Source: Leptospiraceae bacterium
Lineage (GTDB): Bacteria; Spirochaetota; Leptospiria; Leptospirales; Leptospiraceae
DNA length: 20,493 bases
Assembly: GCA_035339655.1 (NCBI GenBank)
Contig: DAOQIR010000030.1
Coordinates: 1-20,493 of the forward strand
Reading direction: 5' to 3'
Shown piece after piece: positions 170-8,135 of the stretch. A model generated the notes under the pieces. It was not told the origin of the DNA, ran no database searches, and saw nothing but the letters and a program-made list of their open reading frames with translations. Position 1 is the first letter of the stretch. Each line of letters opens with the position of its first letter. The position numbers were made by a program, and so were the translations under genes.

Positions 170-616
170 ATGAAGAAAAAAATTCTGATCGCTGTTCCCG
201 TCATATTTCTCCTTCTTCAGCTGATTCCGATCAACAGAAAAAATCCTGAGGTCAAAGCTGATCTGATTGCTGAAGAAAAAGTAAAATCCGTTCTGAAAAA
301 ATCATGTTATGACTGTCACTCAAATGAGACTGTGTATCCTTCTTACTCATACATTTTCCCTGCTTCCGTTTTTTTGGCTCATCATGTTGAAGAGGGAAGA
401 GAAGAGCTGAATTTTTCCGAATGGGAGAATTATACTGCAAAAAAGAAATCCAGAAAAGCAGAGGAGATAATTAAGGAACTCGATAAGAATGATATGCCTC
501 TTTTTTCCTATACTCTGATTCACAGAGATGCAGTATTGAGTTCTGAAGAAAAAAAACTGCTGAAATCCTGGGCGAAAGGTTTCTCCGGGGAACCGGAAGA
601 GAAAGAAGAAAAATAA
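170..616 (+). CDS. Haem-binding domain protein (Haem_bd family, I believe PF14376), N-terminal signal/TM helix
   Basis: ATG at 170 with AAGGTGA RBS 6 nt upstream. N-terminal hydrophobic helix (ILIAVPVIFLLLQLIP). The motif KKSCYDCHSNETVYPSYSYIFPASVFLAHHVEEGREELNFSEW matches the conserved C-x-x-CH core of the haem-binding domain family. 148 aa is typical of the family. Confidence 0.8.
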   Translation: MKKKILIAVPVIFLLLQLIPINRKNPEVKADLIAEEKVKSVLKKSCYDCHSNETVYPSYSYIFPASVFLAHHVEEGREELNFSEWENYTAKKKSRKAEEIIKELDKNDMPLFSYTLIHRDAVLSSEEKKLLKSWAKGFSGEPEEKEEK

Positions 617-1169: not shown

Positions 1170-2204
1170 ATGAAATACTTTTTCATTATAATTTGTTCAG
1201 TCTCCGTTCTGATCTGGGTTCCCTCCTGCAGAAAAGCAGATTTGGGTTTTCATCAGGGACAGAATTCCATCCTGACCGGTCTGGAAAACAGTCCCGAAAA
1301 ATTGAGCGATTCCGACTGCAGGAAATGTCACAGCAGACATTTGCAGGATCAGGCAGTGAACAGCCATGGGCGTGCCTGGGTAAACCCCCTTTTTCAGTCC
1401 GGGTACAGACTTGAGCCGATGAACTGGTGCATTCACTGTCATGCACCTCTTGAATCTCAGAAAAAGGAAATTCTGGGAAAGGAGAATGGTATACTGCATA
1501 ATGAAGGAATCAACTGTGCAGTGTGCCATATCAGAAACGGGAAAATTGTTTCTTCAGAAAAAAGAAATAATTCACCTCATGATACTGTAATTGACGGGAC
1601 CCTGAATTCTTCTGAATTCTGTGCAGGATGTCATGAATTCAATTTTCCTCTTGTGCGTGAGGGCAGGTTCAGTTTCTCTTCTGAACCGATGCAGTCAGTG
1701 TATTCCGAATGGAAAAAATCGGGCACGAAAAAGAGCTGTCAGAACTGTCATTTTGAGAATCATATATTGAAAGGGCCGAGCAGTGCAGGATGGCTGAAAA
1801 AAGCGTTGGGTGATCCTGAGCTGACCGATTCAGGAAAAGGGCTTCTCCACCTTCATCTGGAAATTACTGCCAAAAGAGCACATTCATTTCCGGCGGGAGA
1901 TCTTTTCAGATCACTTTCACTTGAGTTTTCCAATTTCAGTGATTTCAAAACTCTGTTTTTTGCGAAAAAATTTGCCCGATTTTACGGAGCAGGTCTGACA
2001 GACACGGGAACTTTCTGGAACAGGAGGCTGCTCTCTGATTCCACGTTGAAACCGGATGATAATGAAATAAGGATTACTTTTGATGATCCGGGCATTCGGG
2101 ATATTTTTTTTAGAATCAGATTTTTTTATCATGATCCGGAACTGGGTGGAAAAACGGGTGCCCCTGAAAACAGTGTCATTCTTTATGAAAAGAAGATGAG
2201 GTGA
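1170..2204 (+). CDS. Pentahaem c-type cytochrome, probable lipoprotein
   Basis: AGGAGTG RBS 4 nt before the ATG. Signal peptide ending in a lipobox-like VPSC. Five CxxCH haem-attachment motifs (CRKCH, CIHCH, CAVCH, CAGCH, CQNCH) lie within the first ~200 aa. The C-terminal ~140 aa carry no haem motifs. Confidence 0.8.
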   Translation: MKYFFIIICSVSVLIWVPSCRKADLGFHQGQNSILTGLENSPEKLSDSDCRKCHSRHLQDQAVNSHGRAWVNPLFQSGYRLEPMNWCIHCHAPLESQKKEILGKENGILHNEGINCAVCHIRNGKIVSSEKRNNSPHDTVIDGTLNSSEFCAGCHEFNFPLVREGRFSFSSEPMQSVYSEWKKSGTKKSCQNCHFENHILKGPSSAGWLKKALGDPELTDSGKGLLHLHLEITAKRAHSFPAGDLFRSLSLEFSNFSDFKTLFFAKKFARFYGAGLTDTGTFWNRRLLSDSTLKPDDNEIRITFDDPGIRDIFFRIRFFYHDPELGGKTGAPENSVILYEKKMR

Positions 2205-2617: not shown

Positions 2618-3049
2618 TCAGGGGTGAGGAGAGTTTTCTTCATTGAATATCTGAAAGATTTTTTCCGGTACTGAAGTCATCTTTCCGTTTACAAAATCAA
2701 ACCAGATAAATTCTCCGAAGCCTGAGGCAGCGCATTCCTTTTCGGAATTGTAAAAAGAGCAGGCCACTGTAAACTTTCTCGACTGTACAGATTCAAGTCC
2801 TACATACACTGTAATGATTTCGGGATATACAATCTGTTTTCTGTAGTCAAGCTCAATATGGGACATCACCATTCCGTCAGAAGGATTTCTCCCGGAGTTT
2901 TCCCAGATTTTGTGATGAGAGAAGAATTCCGCTCTTGCTGTTTCAAAATATCTCAGGAAGATGACATTGTTCACATGACCGAAAGCGTCCATATCTCCCC
3001 AGTTCACTTTAATGGAAGTGCTGAATTTGAATTTTTGAGGTTTTTTCAA
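2618..3049 (-). CDS. Acyl-CoA thioesterase, 4HBT/YbgC (hotdog-fold) family
   Basis: The VNWGDMDAFGHVNNVIFLRYFETARAEFF motif is characteristic of YbgC/4-hydroxybenzoyl-CoA thioesterases, and the 143-aa length fits. The first start in the ORF is TTG (3047-3049) and no ATG gives a sensible N-terminus, so the start is uncertain by a few codons. Confidence 0.75.
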   Translation of the reverse strand: MKKPQKFKFSTSIKVNWGDMDAFGHVNNVIFLRYFETARAEFFSHHKIWENSGRNPSDGMVMSHIELDYRKQIVYPEIITVYVGLESVQSRKFTVACSFYNSEKECAASGFGEFIWFDFVNGKMTSVPEKIFQIFNEENSPHP

Positions 3050-3059
3050 TTTCTTAAAG

Positions 3060-3094
3060 GGAAATAAAAAAGGGAATGCCTTTCGACATTCCCT
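3060..3094 (-). terminator. Rho-independent terminator for the frameshifted vWA gene (- strand)
   Basis: On the - strand, GGGAATG-tcgaaagg-CATTCCC forms a 7-8 bp GC-rich stem followed by TTTTTTATTT. It begins 15 nt after the TAA stop at 3110-3112. Confidence 0.6.
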
Positions 3095-3109
3095 CAGGAG
3101 AGCCCCAGA

Positions 3110-4348
3110 TTATTTTTTTCTGGAGAAGAAAGATCTTCCTGCAAGTGCGATACCTGCGAGAAGAAGTGCACCGAATGCAAACTTGCCGACTTCTTCACTG
3201 GAAGCATTTCCGATGAATGCAGTCAGAGTCTGGTTTGAACCTGAGCTCATTGCAGTTGCAGAAGTGTTGTATTCATAAGTCACAGTGACTGCATCGCCTG
3301 CTGCAGGAGTAGCTGCCCCTGCAAAGGAGATTGCATTTGCAGTTGCATCATATACCCATCCATTTGAAGTGCTGTTGTTGATCTGCACACCTTTCACTTT
3401 CACTACGATAGTGGAAGAAATTGGAGTCTTGGAGAGTTTGTAAGGACTTGCACTGCCTGCAGCCTGAGATACGATGCTTGTCATAATCGGGCTAAAGTCA
3501 GAGGAACAGATAGAAGCAGAAGAACCTCCAGTAGCTGTAGACAGGTTGTAATACTGAACATAACCGTTGTTTCTGTTGTAAGCACAGACTGTAGAACCTG
3601 CAGCACATCCGTTATATGTCGCATTAGCATTACATGGACCGGATTTACCAGTAGAAGAATCAAGTCCTATGACTGAATAAACCTTGTATCCGTTCTGAGT
3701 AAAAACATTTGAGGATGTATTGAAAGGATTTGTAACTGTTCCTCCAGTACATGGATACCAAGGAGAAACTGTAGGATCAGAGCAGGTTACACCTGTTCCA
3801 TTATAATAATCCCAGTTGTCACCTTCATCAGATACAAATACGAAGAACAGCTTGGAACCGCTTCTTGGAGTAAGGTTGCCGTTGTTTATGCCCTGTGTTG
3901 CAAAATGAGTCGCTGATTCCTGTCCTGAGCCGCTTGTTCCTGCGCTGGTGTTAGATGTAAACACTGTCTGACCATTTGCAGTTGAACTTGTTACCCAATT
4001 TGTTCCGCCTGCTGTTCTCAGAGTTGAGCTGTCTGTTGTGATTACACCGATTCTGTAATCCAGTTTTTTTGTTCCAAGAGCAGTAAAGAATGCAGATGCT
4101 GCACTGGAAACGGCTGTCTGTGCTGCTGACATCGAACCTGAATTGTCCACGACCCATACGAAATCTGCTTTTGGATCAGATGCACCAGTCAGAGAGTCTG
4201 TCTTAGTGTCTTTAGTGACTGTTCCGCAGCTTACGTTAGATCCATCCAGAAATCCAGAGAGCACAGCCTCGGTTGTGCTGTAATTAGGTGTTGTGCTGAC
4301 ACCGATTCCCAGAGATGCAGGACAAGTTGAGCTGTAGACAACTTGCAT
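3110..4348 (-). CDS. C-terminal fragment of the frameshifted vWA lipoprotein (carries the vWA/MIDAS domain)
   Basis: It contains DFVWVVDNSGSMSAAQ, a DxSxS MIDAS motif, and is homologous to the C-terminal ~410 aa of the paralogue including the C-terminal hydrophobic tail. The internal ATG at 4346-4348 is probably fortuitous. Confidence 0.5.
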   Translation of the reverse strand: MQVVYSSTCPASLGIGVSTTPNYSTTEAVLSGFLDGSNVSCGTVTKDTKTDSLTGASDPKADFVWVVDNSGSMSAAQTAVSSAASAFFTALGTKKLDYRIGVITTDSSTLRTAGGTNWVTSSTANGQTVFTSNTSAGTSGSGQESATHFATQGINNGNLTPRSGSKLFFVFVSDEGDNWDYYNGTGVTCSDPTVSPWYPCTGGTVTNPFNTSSNVFTQNGYKVYSVIGLDSSTGKSGPCNANATYNGCAAGSTVCAYNRNNGYVQYYNLSTATGGSSASICSSDFSPIMTSIVSQAAGSASPYKLSKTPISSTIVVKVKGVQINNSTSNGWVYDATANAISFAGAATPAAGDAVTVTYEYNTSATAMSSGSNQTLTAFIGNASSEEVGKFAFGALLLAGIALAGRSFFSRKK

Positions 4349-4950
4349 ACCACATGGAAAGTAGTGGAAGAGGATTCTGTTGCTCCGGCAGATGGCAGTC
4401 CTGTTACTGTACCGCCAGTCTTGTTCAGGCCAATTGTCTGAAGAATCAAGTTGGAAAGTGTTGTAACATTCGTTGCACTGTCAGTTGTGACTGTCAGGTG
4501 ATATATGGTAACTCCGCCGCCTGTTTTTGCAATATCAGCTGAAGAGATAATTGTAACTGAATTTGAATTTGCCAGATTATTGGTTGCTGCTGATGAGGTT
4601 AATGTTGTAATCAGGGAAGACCCAAGTGAACTCGAACTAGTTGCACTTCCTGTAGGAATCTGACCCACGAAGCCTGCCAGCTCAGCAGGATCTCCTGTAT
4701 ATGTGATCCCTGTGAAATCTCCAGTCGGTGTAGTTGTCTGAATCAAACCGTTAGTCAGACTGATTGTATAAGAACCTGAACTGAGAGTTGTAGTCAGAGC
4801 AGCTCCGCCTGCCGTTGTACCCTTCTTATCTACTATAATTTGAGTTGTAGTAGTCAGTATCTTAGCTTTTTTCTTTTTTCCTTCGCAGCCGGCCATTATT
4901 GCTGCGATGGAGAGAATTCCTATTGTGGAAAAGATTTTTGCGTATTTCAT
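4231..4950 (-). CDS. N-terminal fragment of the frameshifted vWA lipoprotein (Thr/Ser-rich region with lipoprotein signal)
   Basis: This ORF would be called by a gene finder and is homologous to aa 28-~270 of the paralogue. It terminates 39 codons after the frameshift. Confidence 0.5.
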   Translation of the reverse strand: MKYAKIFSTIGILSIAAIMAGCEGKKKKAKILTTTTQIIVDKKGTTAGGAALTTTLSSGSYTISLTNGLIQTTTPTGDFTGITYTGDPAELAGFVGQIPTGSATSSSSLGSSLITTLTSSAATNNLANSNSVTIISSADIAKTGGGVTIYHLTVTTDSATNVTTLSNLILQTIGLNKTGGTVTGLPSAGATESSSTTFHVVCKLSTAQLVLHLWESVSAQHLITAQPRLCSLDFWMDLT

Positions 4951-5245
4951 TCTCGCTCTCCTTGTTTACTCTTTATTTTACGATAGAAAATTGAGATTTA
5001 TATATTTTCGCAAAAAAAAAATGAGACAGGATTTCATTTAATCATTAATAAAAATCTCAATTTGAGATGAAAATGATATATGGTATATTTTTGAATATAA
5101 AAAGATAAGACTGGGTTCAAATGCAGAGTCAGAAATATATTGATCTGAATGCAGTGCCGTCGATTTGACGCAGAAGATGTGCTGCCCTGCTGTCTTTTTG
5201 TCATTTTTTTGCGTATTTTTCAAAGGAAGTATAAAACAGTGAGAA

Positions 5246-5279
5246 TACAAAAAAAGCGCAGGAGTTTTAATTCCTGCGC
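5246..5279 (-). terminator. Rho-independent terminator for the intact vWA lipoprotein gene (- strand)
   Basis: GCGCAGGA(g/t)-ttta-(a/t)TCCTGCGC hairpin with an 8-10 bp stem. On the - strand it is followed by TTTTTTTG, which is the A-run at 5249-5255 on the + strand. It lies 29 nt after the stop at 5308. Confidence 0.6.
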
Positions 5280-5307
5280 CAAGTGGGTGCGGAAGAGAGA
5301 AAAACGG

Positions 5308-7152
5308 TTATCTGTTCTTTTTGGAAAGATAATTTCTTCCAATAAGCGTAAGTGCAGCCAGAAGGATTGCTCCTATTCCGATTTTTACTGCATTGCTGTT
5401 GACTGTATTCCCGATGTAGGCAGTCAGTGTCTGATCTGCTGCAGAGGATCTGAATGCTGTTCCTGAGCTGTTGTATTCATAGGTCACACTGATGCTTGCA
5501 CCGACGGAAGGCCAGGCAGTTCCTGAGAAAATAATGGAATTGGAGCTCGCATCATATGTCCATCCGTTCACCGAGCTTTTCGCTGCATCCGTTCCATTCA
5601 CTTTCACATTGATTGTACTGGAAATCGGAGATTTGGAGAGCACATACGGACTGGACGTTGCAGCTGCTTCATTTACAATACTGCTCATAATCGGACTGAA
5701 ATCGTCAGCACAGATCGATGCAGATGATCCGCCTGTTGCCAGTGCCAGATTATAATAGTTCGTATGCTGGTTGTTGTTGTTCGAGGCCGATGTTCCGTTT
5801 GTTCCGGTACATTTTCCTGAAAGACCGGTGGCTGCATCCAGACCGATGATCCCAAAAACCTTGTAACTGTTCTGAGTGAACACATTGCTGGCAGTGTCAA
5901 ATGAGGTACCGTTCTTACATGGACTCCAGGTAGGTGACGCGGGGGTCGTTGTAGATCCTCCATTATAACACTGGTAGCTGTCCCCTTCATCAGTTACGAA
6001 TACAAAATAAAGCTTTGAGCCGCTTCTGGGAGTCAGGTTTCCATTATTGATGCCTTGAACCGCAAAATGTGTGGCTGATTCATTACCGCTTCCGCCTGTT
6101 CCAGCCGCAGTATTTGCAACGAATGCTGTCTGACCTCCGGATGTGGAGTTGACAACCCAGCTTGTTCCTCCGGCGGTTCTCAATGTACTGCTGTCTGTAG
6201 TGATGACCCCTATCCTGTAGTCGAGTCTCTTATTGGAAAGTGCTGAAAAGAATGTGGTTGCTGCGCTGGACACTGCACTTTGCTCCTGCTGCATAGAAGA
6301 GGAGTTGTCAACCACCCAGACGAAATCTGCCTTTGGATCAGCTGCTCCGCTGAAACTGTCTGTCTTGGCAATTTTAGTGACTGTTCCGCTCGCAATGTTT
6401 GATCCGTCCAAAAATGTAGTCAGAAGAGCTTCATTTGCCGAATAGTTGGCTGTTGTGCTTACCCCTACGCCTATGACTTCAGGTCCTGTTGAACTGTATG
6501 TCACTTGGAGAACCACATGAAAACTGGCAGATGTGGATTCTGTTCCCCCGCTTGTCGGAAGGTTGGTGACCGTTCCGTTTGTGATGCTGGTTCCGATTGT
6601 CTGGAGGAGAAGATTGGAGAGTCCTGTCACATTAGTGGCACTGTCTGTAGTGACTGCCAAATGATAAATTGAGGTGCTGCCCCCTGATCCGGAAGATGTG
6701 GAGCTGGACAATACGTTTGCTGTGGCCAGATTAGTTGTGGGAATGGCGGCATTGATGATACCCAGAAGACTGGAAGAAAGCGATGCTGAATCGGCCTGTC
6801 CCTGATCCGGGACCTGTCCTATAAACCCTGCCACTTCTGCCGGATTGCCGGCGTAAGTGATCCCTGTAAAGTCACCAGACGGAGATGCTGTGGAGGTAAT
6901 ACCGGAAGGCATGGACACGGAGTAGTTTCCGGCAGATACAGAAGCTGTCACTGCAGTTCCGGAAGCAGTAGTGCCAGTTCCGGCTGATGTACCGTCAGTA
7001 GAGGTGCTCGTAGAGGCTGCTGCCTTAGGATCATCCACCAGAACTGACATTGTAGTCGTCAGAACCTTGGCTTTTTTGGGTTTGTCTTCACAGTTTAGAA
7101 CAAAGACGAGCAAAGTCGCAAGACCGGCTGCTGTCAGTTTGATTCCTCTCAT
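5308..7152 (-). CDS. von Willebrand factor type A (vWA) domain lipoprotein with Thr/Ser-rich N-terminal region
   Basis: The best start is the ATG at 7150-7152 (MRGIKLTAAGLATLLVFVLNC, lipoprotein signal), with an AAGGAG RBS 7 nt upstream; the longest ORF extends to 7236. A MIDAS motif DFVWVVDNSSSMQQEQ (DxSxS) sits mid-protein. A long low-complexity T/S/G/A stretch (STSTSTDGTSAGTGTTASGTAVTAS) follows the signal peptide. The C-terminus is hydrophobic (GIGAILLAALTLIG). Confidence 0.8.
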   Translation of the reverse strand: MRGIKLTAAGLATLLVFVLNCEDKPKKAKVLTTTMSVLVDDPKAAASTSTSTDGTSAGTGTTASGTAVTASVSAGNYSVSMPSGITSTASPSGDFTGITYAGNPAEVAGFIGQVPDQGQADSASLSSSLLGIINAAIPTTNLATANVLSSSTSSGSGGSTSIYHLAVTTDSATNVTGLSNLLLQTIGTSITNGTVTNLPTSGGTESTSASFHVVLQVTYSSTGPEVIGVGVSTTANYSANEALLTTFLDGSNIASGTVTKIAKTDSFSGAADPKADFVWVVDNSSSMQQEQSAVSSAATTFFSALSNKRLDYRIGVITTDSSTLRTAGGTSWVVNSTSGGQTAFVANTAAGTGGSGNESATHFAVQGINNGNLTPRSGSKLYFVFVTDEGDSYQCYNGGSTTTPASPTWSPCKNGTSFDTASNVFTQNSYKVFGIIGLDAATGLSGKCTGTNGTSASNNNNQHTNYYNLALATGGSSASICADDFSPIMSSIVNEAAATSSPYVLSKSPISSTINVKVNGTDAAKSSVNGWTYDASSNSIIFSGTAWPSVGASISVTYEYNSSGTAFRSSAADQTLTAYIGNTVNSNAVKIGIGAILLAALTLIGRNYLSKKNR

Positions 7153-7277
7153 AAATTTTCTCCTTACTTTATTAAACGGGAATTCCTTCCGAAATGTTAC
7201 ACTCCGATACTCTGAATGCAAGTAAAAATAAGTCATTATTGAGAAAAAGGAATTCGATAATATATTTGAGGTAAATC

Positions 7278-8135
7278 ATGAAATTTTTGTTTCTGCTCTT
7301 TCTGTTCCCTGTTTATCAGGTTTTTTCTGTTCCTACCACTCTCAGAATTGAAGAAAAGGAAAACTACCAGTTTATCGAGTCTGTCCGTGCCAAAAAATTT
7401 GCAGACAGAGAAATTGACAGACTGCATCAGTCCATCATAAAAATGCTCGCCAGAATGAAAGAGCACGAAACTTCAGGAAGCCTGAAAAATTCAGCGAAGT
7501 ACACTGCCAATGTTCCGGACGAACCGGAAATTGTATTTAAAAAAGATGCGGAAGGAAAGGAATACTTCAGTCTCTTCCTTAGTCAGGCAGTCTCACCGGA
7601 AGATTATCCGGTCTACCATATTATTAATACCCGGGTCTATGTGTATCCTTCCGAAGATTTAAAAACTCTGAAAAAAGTGATTCTGCAGTTCAACAGAGTG
7701 AATGCCAATCTGGAAAATCCTAATTTTCCTGTGTATGTGAAAGAAATGAGAAGAATCATCAACAATACCCCTAATTTTCCGGAAAAGCAGAAGACGGAAG
7801 GTGACTTAAGTGCAGGGATTCCTAAATTTCAGCAGGAAAATATCACAGATGCATCTCTGGAAACGCAGCAGAACGGTGATCTTGTGATGGAATATTATAC
7901 TGATATCGATGGAAAACTGGCCTGGGTGGACGAAAAGCCCGTGACCGGATCCAAACCGTCTCTTTCAGGAAAGATTTTAGATGAGAAGCTTCCTGTTCCT
8001 TACGATATACAGAACAAGATTTATCTGACTTACAGAGATACCCTCCGTGAAATTGACTCTAAAATAAAAAGAAAACTGAAAATTATGGATACTAATCAGA
8101 GAATCATTATCCGCAAGATGATGGAAGTCAACTGA
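7278..8135 (+). CDS. Secreted hypothetical protein (SPI-type signal peptide)
   Basis: GAGGT RBS before the ATG. N-terminal MKFLFLLFLFPVYQVFSVP signal peptide. The remainder is hydrophilic and K/E-rich with no recognisable motif. Confidence 0.6.
   Translation: MKFLFLLFLFPVYQVFSVPTTLRIEEKENYQFIESVRAKKFADREIDRLHQSIIKMLARMKEHETSGSLKNSAKYTANVPDEPEIVFKKDAEGKEYFSLFLSQAVSPEDYPVYHIINTRVYVYPSEDLKTLKKVILQFNRVNANLENPNFPVYVKEMRRIINNTPNFPEKQKTEGDLSAGIPKFQQENITDASLETQQNGDLVMEYYTDIDGKLAWVDEKPVTGSKPSLSGKILDEKLPVPYDIQNKIYLTYRDTLREIDSKIKRKLKIMDTNQRIIIRKMMEVN

Follow-up and report, generated by a model that had tools for sequence, protein, structure and literature searches.

Bd0875 and Bd1483 of Bdellovibrio are MIDAS adhesins with a lipobox, and the variable 'cap' loops around their MIDAS pocket are presumed to determine which ligand is bound (Tyson et al., 2024, PMC11003981). 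In Myxococcus xanthus, the gliding-motility lipoprotein CglD, which is compared here together with CglB (PMC9946355), is described as beta-integrin-like, with a MIDAS formed by D656, S658, S660, T693 and D799 (bioRxiv 10.1101/2023.10.19.562135). The window of this study, i.e., the whole stretch of 20,493 nt that was analysed (contig DAOQIR010000030.1 of GCA_035339655.1, Leptospiraceae bacterium, forward strand), carries two adjacent paralogous lipoprotein genes, A and B, of about 613 aa each on the - strand (3110..7152). Among known proteins, the Bd0875/Bd1483 and CglD adhesins come closest to their products, which are relatives of these adhesins and lie outside the named families. A 348-aa lipobox vWA protein of B. 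bacteriovorus shared 30% identity with B over the vWA and beta domains (E 1e-24). NCBIfam returned weak matches to its models for MIDAS family adhesins and for CglD: NF052240 gave 32-36 bits against a cut-off of 700, so the window proteins are not equivalogs of it, and the CglD model NF033765, which aligned with A residues 158-574, gave 29-35 bits where its cut-off is 400.

Compared with the Bdellovibrio adhesins, the window proteins are longer by about 270 aa and have a PsbP-like domain and a Thr/Ser-rich linker on the N side and a membrane helix on the C side. Their organism is a spirochaete, and there is no evidence that it is a predator. With CglD they share the character of an outer-membrane-type lipoprotein, a betaI-like vWA domain, the MIDAS pattern D-x-S-x-S...T(+37)...D (the Asp-to-Thr spacing of +37 is that of D282 and T319 in B) and, as reported for CglD, integrin beta headpieces as the best Foldseek matches. 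However, at about half its size, they have neither COMP/thrombospondin Ca-binding nor EGF-like repeats, and none of the Glt gliding genes lies near them. The eukaryotic integrin beta headpiece likewise has a vWA (betaI) domain with a MIDAS inserted in a beta-sandwich (hybrid domain), whereas sequence identity to it was only 12-17% and the window proteins are without an alpha-subunit partner, PSI or EGF domains. The integrin resemblance is one of fold and no proof of homologous function.

We consider it probable that the locus encodes two paralogous MIDAS lipoprotein adhesins, of which B is conserved and A swaps its head, and that A has been genuinely and recently frameshifted, giving a null allele that is polymorphic. 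Gene B (5308..7152, -), the conserved paralogue, is an unbroken 614-aa ORF for a beta-integrin-like vWA/MIDAS lipoprotein; its start matches the NCBI annotation HNF12768.1, and an extension of the ORF to 7236 is possible. Gene A (3110..4950, -), the variable paralogue and the downstream copy of the tandem pair, is disrupted by a 1-nt deletion and encodes 613 aa once restored. Restored A and B aligned end to end with 57% identity (BLASTP E = 0.0), in agreement with an earlier sequence-only reading that had described tandem paralogous lipoproteins of about 610 aa on the - strand. Each gene has its own AAGGAG RBS and its own terminator, as that reading held: the RBS of B lies at 7160..7165 (-), 7 nt upstream of the ATG at 7152, and that of A at 4958..4963 (-), while terminator-like hairpins with a T-run follow B (5255..5280, -) and A (3070..3095, -). 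The two paralogues would be transcribed independently of each other. All of the shared motifs quoted earlier (GDFTGITY, AGF[VI]GQ[IV]P, IYHL[TA]VTTDSATNVT and DxSxS) were found. The host is an uncultured Leptospiraceae bacterium of activated-sludge type, and a syntenic relative was found in an activated-sludge metagenome.

Both proteins begin with a lipobox signal peptide, a disordered Thr/Ser-rich linker and a PsbP/Mog1-like alpha/beta domain, followed by a small beta domain with the vWA domain inserted in it, a short linker, a C-terminal hydrophobic helix and a basic tail. The domain before the vWA is not a beta-sandwich of the kind that was to be looked for there. Their Thr/Ser-rich linkers have diverged, as previously stated. 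A lipobox cysteine is present in both; that of B (Cys21, preceded by ...VFVLN) was read at 7090..7092 (-), where the consensus of the homologue alignment has Cys as its majority residue. The MIDAS site (DxSxS...T...D) is complete in both vWA domains: the DxSxS motif of B (D282-N-S284-S-S286) lies at 6295..6309 (-), where homologue conservation supports it and the coordinates were verified, and that of A (D269-N-S-G-S273) was read intact at 4133..4147 (-). Across 22-30 homologues, the MIDAS residues showed no or almost no variation; by B numbering, D282 and S284 were invariant and S286 nearly invariant among 22 homologues, and T319 and D388 were conserved in at least 90%. The Pfam VWA gathering score of 23.8 was not reached by B (21.4) or A (13.4). 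The predicted structure of B had a pLDDT of 78.5 and a pTM of 0.76, and the model of the 412-aa fragment of A a pLDDT of 74.6; integrin beta headpieces were the top Foldseek matches of both (E 2e-6 to 4e-7), with low TM-scores of 0.2-0.35 that leave the inter-domain geometry unsettled. The earlier call of a vWA domain with a DxSxS MIDAS is borne out by the conserved residues and these matches. By analogy with Bd0875/Bd1483 and CglD, A and B are most likely envelope-anchored, metal-ion-dependent adhesins.

The two genes differ in how they vary. Gene B had a dN/dS of 0.01-0.03 and is under strong purifying selection. In gene A, a mosaic vWA cassette (residues about 275-470; 3542..4129, -) starts just past DxSxS and stops just short of TGGSxASIC. 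Between window A and the L007 allele, the flanks were 98-100% identical at the nucleotide level and the cassette only 46-74%; L007 is a 1.9-kb metagenome contig in which a chimera is conceivable, but three further independent contigs show the mosaic pattern again. It holds between L092 and L008/L009. The cassette pS was 0.82 (saturated) against a flank dS of 0.01. The cassette of L092 was nearest to that of a distant homologue, L090, and window A carries its own Cys-rich inserts. The divergent cassette alleles all keep the MIDAS residues, and within one allele class dN/dS was 0.12. The hypervariable element is not mainly the Thr/Ser stalk, as had been claimed, but the vWA head of A, exchanged as a cassette between strains. 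Old and strongly diverged alleles take the place of the whole head, a pattern that fits a shuffling of long-lived allele classes by homologous recombination through the conserved flanks of A; phage, grazers, predators or ligand specificity are candidate selective agents. The diversification suggested before is supported as such. The habitat lends no support to its antigenic side or to the proposed binding to host surfaces: with the syntenic relative coming from activated sludge, there is no sign of a host immune system.

In Borrelia, the OspC allele groups are a balanced, recombining polymorphism of a surface lipoprotein. Gene A may resemble it as a spirochaetal lipoprotein gene whose old, sharply distinct allele classes are recombined among otherwise near-identical genomes, with purifying selection within a class. 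It differs in that only the vWA head is swapped rather than the whole gene, that a conserved paralogue (B) adjoins it, and that the habitat is wastewater and not a vertebrate host. Spirochaetes are known for cassette-based antigenic variation, and the variation in A is sharply limited to one segment with identical flanks; both would fit a dedicated mechanism, such as a diversity-generating retroelement or silent-cassette gene conversion of the vlsE/tprK kind, in place of ordinary recombination. We regard this as very unlikely. On the 20.5-kb contig there is no template/variable repeat pair, reverse transcriptase or extra vWA fragment, though distant donor sites elsewhere are possible. In addition, over about 600 nt the cassette divergence includes indels as well as saturated synonymous sites, unlike adenine-targeted mutagenesis, and A and B share no near-identical tracts (longest 46 nt at 78%).

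A second peculiarity of gene A is its broken frame. The gene is split into two ORFs overlapping by 118 nt. The 5' ORF (239 aa; 4231..4950, -) holds the signal peptide and lipobox (Cys22), the linker, and 201 native plus 38 out-of-frame residues, while the 3' ORF (412 aa; 3110..4348, -) holds the end of the PsbP-like domain, the beta domain, the vWA and the C-terminal helix. On the coding strand the break reads CATGTGGT directly followed by ATGCAAG (window about 4348-4350), and the intact alleles L007 and L093 read GTGGTTATG at this site; GGT thus abuts ATG at 4348..4350 (-) where intact alleles have GGTTATG. The frame breaks directly after FHVV (A residues 198-201), as had been placed at about 4346-4350. 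The missing base is one T of a GTT valine codon (GTT ATG to GT ATG), i.e., of a TT dinucleotide. Since the lost T belongs to GTT-ATG, the native peptide is FHVV-M-QVV and not FHVV-L-QVV as was proposed; the residue after FHVV is M in all A-type orthologues and L in B-type ones. A core beta-strand of the PsbP-like domain is interrupted by the break: in B this strand spans residues 207-220, and FHVV occupies 211-214. As a truncated lipoprotein fragment of 239 aa and an ORF of 412 aa without a signal peptide are what is left, gene A is read as a null allele.

The sequence-only reading had left open whether this was genuine pseudogenisation or a sequencing indel, and the data speak for a genuine deletion, polymorphic in the population. 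The exact 239-aa fragment protein (P0181) was found on nine contigs and the 412-aa fragment (P0011) on seven (NCBI, ENA and Logan), although the sister MAGs possibly all come from one study or reactor and so represent one population. Six compared contigs from six different assemblies aligned gap-free to the window. By contrast, the sister MAG GCA_035345255.1 (L093; P0182) has the same gene A allele in an intact state, so the comparison with sister strains that had been called for yields both states. Within gene A it differed from the window only by the indel and one SNP (at 4504), which marks the deletion as a loss-of-function polymorphism of very recent origin. The window is a contig of a MAG, and given an otherwise identical intact allele, an error of a single base in the consensus would suffice to account for the difference and leave gene A intact in the organism. 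Such an error is nevertheless very unlikely: the same deletion occurs in nine contigs, which stem from MAGs at NCBI, a MEGAHIT assembly at ENA and Logan assemblies, and the compared contigs L001-L005 each carry some SNPs against the window and are thus separate consensus sequences. Moreover, it lies at a TT dinucleotide and not in a homopolymer, where indel errors cluster, and a sister MAG of neighbouring accession number yielded the intact state.

A genuine deletion might still act as a switch, through reversible phase variation, a programmed -1 ribosomal frameshift or transcriptional slippage that restores full length. Frameshifted and intact states are both present in closely related genomes, the affected gene is the variable and presumably exposed paralogue, the downstream frame is still open over 412 codons, and a -1 shift after GTA would yield exactly FHVV-M-QVV. 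We consider this highly improbable. No simple-sequence repeat lies at the site, and the whole 0/-1 overlap contains neither an X XXY YYZ heptamer nor a run of at least five identical bases, in line with the earlier statements that the site is not a homopolymer and that slipped-strand phase variation is unlikely. Val-tRNA on GUA should also be unable to re-pair on GGU after a -1 slip, and the open downstream frame is explained by the very recent mutation, one SNP from an intact allele. That gene A works split, with both fragments made and useful, is hardly credible: both ORFs are long and uninterrupted and the second begins with an ATG exactly at the break, but the break lies within a core strand, the 412-aa ORF has no purine-rich RBS in the 30 nt before its ATG and no signal peptide, and the split layout occurs in no orthologue (L007, L008, L009, L092 and L093 are all single ORFs). 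The loss in gene A is read as an ordinary deletion, neither a recoding nor a phase-variation device.

The hydrophobic C-terminal tail noted earlier in both proteins is present as a helix, predicted in B with its basic tail at residues 589-613 (5314..5388, -). This tail occurs in one Leptospiraceae subclade only, and other homologues stop directly after the beta domain. An N-terminal lipid anchor together with a C-terminal membrane helix is an unusual combination for a surface adhesin; the pairing could indicate a protein that faces the periplasm or spans the envelope, or else a sorting signal that is cleaved off.

The contig, which the window covers completely at 20,493 bp, belonged to an uncultured 'Leptospiraceae bacterium' MAG (locus tags PK453_038xx) and carried two tandem genes on the minus strand that proved to be paralogues with vWA/MIDAS folds. 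Gene B (5308..7152) was an intact ORF of 614 aa. Gene A (3110..4950) was split into a 239-aa ORF (4231..4950) and a 412-aa ORF (3110..4348) sharing an overlap of 118 nt; when one base was put back, it encoded 613 aa and could be aligned with B over the full length (57% identity, E = 0.0). Each gene had its own AAGGAG ribosome-binding site 7 nt before the ATG (4958..4963 for A, 7160..7165 for B) and its own terminator-like hairpin with a T-run after the stop (3095..3070 for A, 5280..5255 for B), all on the minus strand. The sequence-only reading had claimed exactly this arrangement of tandem paralogues, and the motifs that it listed were all found as well. In the 5' region of A, a T10 homopolymer (5012..5021, minus strand) sat with promoter-like hexamers on one side and the ribosome-binding site on the other. 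The tract had equal length in the sister assemblies that covered it, all gap-free there, and thus gave no sign of phase variation.

Both proteins began with a candidate lipobox signal peptide read from the sequence, MKYAKIFSTIGILSIAAIMAG before Cys22 in A and MRGIKLTAAGLATLLVFVLN before Cys21 in B. The family alignment consensus had Cys here as the majority residue, and only the looser spirochaetal rules allow an N at position -1. The signal peptide was followed by a disordered Thr/Ser-rich linker (17 residues longer in B), a PsbP-like alpha/beta domain, a small beta domain (strands 253-268 and 505-561) into which the vWA domain was inserted, another linker and finally a C-terminal helix with a basic tail (589-613). 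The PsbP-like domain thus occupies the place where an upstream beta-sandwich had been suspected earlier. Pfam VWA (PF00092) scored 21.4 bits for B and 13.4 bits for A, both below the gathering score of 23.8, and the precomputed PF00092 matches of three orthologues (P0004, P0005 and P0008) were mostly labelled weak or faint. Despite these sub-threshold scores, the earlier assignment of a vWA domain with a DxSxS MIDAS was supported by the conserved residues and by the models. A complete predicted MIDAS site (D-x-S-x-S plus distal Thr and Asp) could be recognized in both sequences: in B, D282 and S284 were invariant and S286, T319 and D388 were at least 90% conserved, and A kept all the residues (D269-N-S-G-S273, T at about 306, D375). 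The AlphaFold2 model of B, built on a 22-sequence alignment, reached pLDDT 78.5 and pTM 0.76, that of the 412-aa ORF of A reached pLDDT 74.6, and the Rossmann-like alpha/beta vWA fold was found. With both models Foldseek placed integrin beta-subunit headpieces on top, followed by the SpaC and LapA vWFA adhesins; the TM-scores were low (0.2-0.35), so they support the fold and the insertion topology and not the domain geometry. A sequence search of the PDB with B gave no match.

In outline the C-terminal tail followed a motif-helix-basic order (L[TM]A[YF]I[GS]N, then a hydrophobic helix, then R/K); it was confined to one Leptospiraceae subclade and was missing from many homologues. No curated NCBIfam model of C-terminal sorting signals (PEP-CTERM, MYXO-CTERM, GlyGly-CTERM and similar) matched it even at E 10, and scanning the isolated tails and the N-terminal 260 aa against NCBIfam returned nothing at E of 10 or less. 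Since the tail coexists with a predicted N-terminal lipid anchor, the proteins may end up at the surface, facing the periplasm or spanning the envelope. A and B are probably envelope-anchored, metal-dependent adhesins.

Similar proteins are known from predatory and gliding bacteria. A 348-aa lipobox protein of B. bacteriovorus was 30% identical to B over the core formed by the vWA and beta domains (E 1e-24). M. xanthus CglD has been described as a lipoprotein that resembles beta-integrin and has the MIDAS residues D656, S658, S660, T693 and D799 (bioRxiv 10.1101/2023.10.19.562135), and its Asp-to-Thr spacing of +37 is the same as in our proteins. Membership of the named families was ruled out: A and B scored 35.8 and 32.3 bits with NF052240 (MIDAS family adhesin, Bdellovibrio Bd0875 equivalog; cut-off 700), the two scores with NF033765 (adventurous gliding motility lipoprotein CglD; cut-off 400) were 28.7 and 34.9 bits, and the Pfam scan of A, B and the neighbouring genes detected neither COMP nor EGF repeats, nor any Glt genes. 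By analogy, the two proteins may nonetheless work like Bd0875/CglD-type adhesins. The class of bacterial 'integrin-like' lipobox-MIDAS adhesins recognised in recent work (Bd0875/Bd1483, CglD) now takes in Leptospiraceae, with a PsbP-like domain and a C-terminal anchor as additions. The underlying family is large and mostly unnamed: 4161 cluster representatives passed an E-value limit of 1e-3, and 1383 passed one of 1e-10. Among the matches listed, the homologues in GTDB genomes were mostly from Bdellovibrionota and Myxococcota, and the genome contig scan listed relatives at 46% identity or less. Proteins of 1000-2467 aa (P0012, P0040-P0050) also ended in the whole module, as their C-terminal 560 aa or so, and some of them have precomputed Big_2 domains. 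The adhesin head was thus reused on stalks of very different length.

Comparison with related contigs revealed that the vWA head of A was mosaic between strains while B was conserved. In the codon alignment of A from the window with the intact allele on contig L007, DNA identity was 98-100% for some 800 nt at the start and some 450 nt at the end, and it fell to 46-74% in a cassette of roughly 600 nt (about 3542..4129, minus strand) between DxSxS and TGGSxASIC. The mosaic pattern was repeated when gene A of the related contig L092 was compared with those of L008 and L009, where the ends were 100% identical and the centre 55-60%. The nearest match to the L092 cassette was the one in L090 (75-86% nt, 80% aa); L090 is a distant homologue present as a single copy, and its flanks were only about 65% identical in protein. 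The earlier reading had taken the T/S-rich stalks as the hypervariable part and had missed the segment that is exchanged, the vWA head of A. MIDAS residues and an even cysteine count were kept in every A allele, and the allele of the window had two extra Cys-rich inserts. A protein search with the N-terminal 274 aa of A yielded no further A alleles. B differed uniformly across the same genome pairs (about 80% DNA and 93-99% protein identity), and its dN/dS was 0.01-0.03.

Several sources of this diversity were considered. Recent gene conversion from B to A was rejected on the DNA, where the longest shared stretch was 46 nt at 78% and the cassette was only 54-76% identical to B, although residues 331-400 of A were 72% identical to B in aa vs 58-61% to other A alleles. 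In situ hypermutation or positive selection was also rejected as the source: by Nei-Gojobori counts, synonymous differences in the cassette were saturated (pS 0.75-0.82; pN 0.26) between genes whose flanks were nearly identical (dS 0.01, window vs L007). A diversity-generating retroelement (DGR) or gene conversion from silent cassettes was dismissed, as the 20.5-kb contig had no silent cassettes, template repeats, repeat pairs or extra vWA fragments, and no reverse-transcriptase domain among its neighbouring genes. Within one A allele class (L008 vs L009), dN/dS was 0.12. We interpret the cassettes as old, functional-looking alleles, probably imported by recombination; neither in situ hypermutation nor decay is taken to have produced them. 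Recombination via the conserved flanks would have moved them.

The gene order 285-aa secreted protein, B, A, 4HBT thioesterase and multihaem cytochrome was kept in L008 and L009, and the short contig L092 kept the A and cytochrome side; A was intact in all three. Another Leptospiraceae MAG (L091, 5960..9839) had an independent tandem pair (P0003/P0005, 81-85% identical), and a further MAG had a single copy. Sister MAGs that were otherwise near-identical to the window showed tight clusters of mostly third-codon-position SNPs, located at 6280..6490 (30/210 nt) and 6733..6862 (23/130 nt) in B and at 9781..9841 (8/60 nt) in an MVP-like gene. These variant patches were not identical to the sister lineages L008/L009, and they are either short tracts that recombination brought in from unsampled lineages or an effect of mixed strains on the consensus of the MAG assembly.

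The coding strand of A at the break reads TTC CAT GTG GT-A TGC AAG (hyphen at the break). Two intact alleles, on L007 (JGI 3300009206) and on L093 (GCA_035345255.1, contig DAORCB010000126.1), both read GTG GTT ATG CAA, so that the GTT codon has lost one T and FHVV-M-QVV is the native peptide. The earlier reconstruction, FHVV-L-QVV, had therefore the right base and the wrong residue; Met occupied this position in all A-type orthologues, and Leu is the B-type residue. Whether the indel was pseudogenisation or a sequencing error had been left undecided. Nine contigs encoded exactly the 239-aa protein and seven the 412-aa fragment; these contigs came from NCBI MAGs, Logan assemblies and an ENA MEGAHIT assembly. 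The window aligned without gaps to six fetched contigs from six different assemblies, and five of the contigs with the frameshifted allele (L001-L005) each had some SNPs relative to the window and were thus separate consensus sequences. The sister MAG L093 (neighbouring accession number) carried the same A allele in intact form, the sole differences in gene A being the indel and one SNP at 4504. Deletion in multiple assemblies beside an intact L093 argues for a genuine segregating null allele and against sequencing error; as judged from these alignments, the loss of 1 nt is genuine and very recent, and closely related genomes are polymorphic for it. The sister MAGs may all derive from one reactor population. 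A metagenome pattern scan for the intact or deleted junction, ACTTTCCATGTGGT(N0-1)ATGCAAGTTGTCTACAGC, gave no match; a metagenome protein scan with the N-terminus of A, in a collection lacking the species, found only two relatives at 35% identity. The 239-aa 'hypothetical protein' and the 412-aa 'vWA domain-containing protein' in the deposited annotation of several MAGs are the two halves of a single gene that was disrupted recently. At the end of the L093 contig, 135 nt (6583..6717) were foreign, high-GC sequence; this chimeric end gave the deposited protein HNO22382.1 (P0182) a spurious 22-aa C-terminus.

The simplest reading is that the frameshifted A is a null allele. The break falls within a core beta-strand of the N-terminal domain (207-220 in B, with FHVV at 211-214), and the 412-aa ORF had neither a signal peptide nor a purine-rich ribosome-binding site. 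Only the young age of the mutation explains why the frame beyond the break, downstream, remains open. A programmed -1 ribosomal frameshift, which in the frameshifted strain would yield the junction peptide ...TTFHVVMQVVYSS, was rejected since no X XXY YYZ slippery heptamer occurred in the 250-nt stretch with 0 and -1 frames both open; the Val-tRNA on GUA would also be unable to re-pair after a -1 slip. A phase-variable contingency locus was rejected because the site is a TT dinucleotide outside any simple-sequence repeat or homopolymer tract, with no run of five or more bases in the 250-nt overlap, in agreement with the earlier judgement that slipped-strand variation was unlikely. The deletion is an ordinary event.

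A duplicated adhesin-like gene with a fresh frameshift, as first stated, is likewise ordinary; the cassette-like variability of A beside a frozen paralogue is the sole moderately interesting aspect. The locus offers a natural contrast, one paralogue being frozen by purifying selection and the ligand-binding head of the other being exchanged as a cassette. B would supply the conserved function, and A would be a dispensable, diversifying copy whose loss-of-function alleles can reach high frequency. As a tentative and rather doubtful joint reading, the two could form a 'constant plus variable' adhesin pair, in which B is the conserved working adhesin and the head of A comes from a set of ancient allele classes that co-existing strains exchange by recombination via identical flanks. 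These classes, and null alleles such as the T deletion, would be held by negative frequency-dependent selection, for example if the exposed head served as a phage or predator receptor. If true, an integrin-like domain of a free-living wastewater spirochaete would show a balanced polymorphism similar to that of OspC. Host-surface binding and antigenic diversification had been proposed before; since the syntenic relative L009 came from an activated-sludge metagenome, phages, grazers, predators or floc-matrix ligands are more plausible selective agents than host immunity. The A/B contrast marks the vWA surface under diversifying pressure and could guide ligand or phage-receptor studies.

The surroundings of the pair were partly conserved. 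The 285-aa ORF (7278..8135, plus strand), with an N-terminal hydrophobic stretch and no Pfam match, diverges from gene B and was kept in place in six contigs (L001, L002, L004, L008, L009 and L093); its product may be a functional partner of the vWA pair. Downstream of A lay a block, syntenic in related contigs, of a 4HBT thioesterase, a multihaem MtrC/MtrF-like cytochrome and a Haem_bd protein (genes at 170..616 and 1170..2204 on the plus strand and 2618..3049 on the minus strand), in which one small ORF had a faint LMWPc match only. An 842-aa ORF (8852..11380, plus strand) encoded a full-length bacterial homologue of the Major Vault Protein of eukaryotes, with Pfam matches to MVP_shoulder (E 1.9e-21) and Vault_3 (E 1e-7) and a C-terminus rich in coiled coil. 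Phmmer against the PDB recovered Major Vault Protein chains (E 9e-13), residues 469-770 being collinear with 467-787 of 861 aa, and counterparts were present near the vWA pair in L009 (835 aa) and L001. Further along were a CAP/SCP-domain protein with a hydrophobic N-terminus (12654..13385, minus strand; E 2.6e-28) and a bacterial lipocalin (13595..14281, plus strand; E 5.7e-41).
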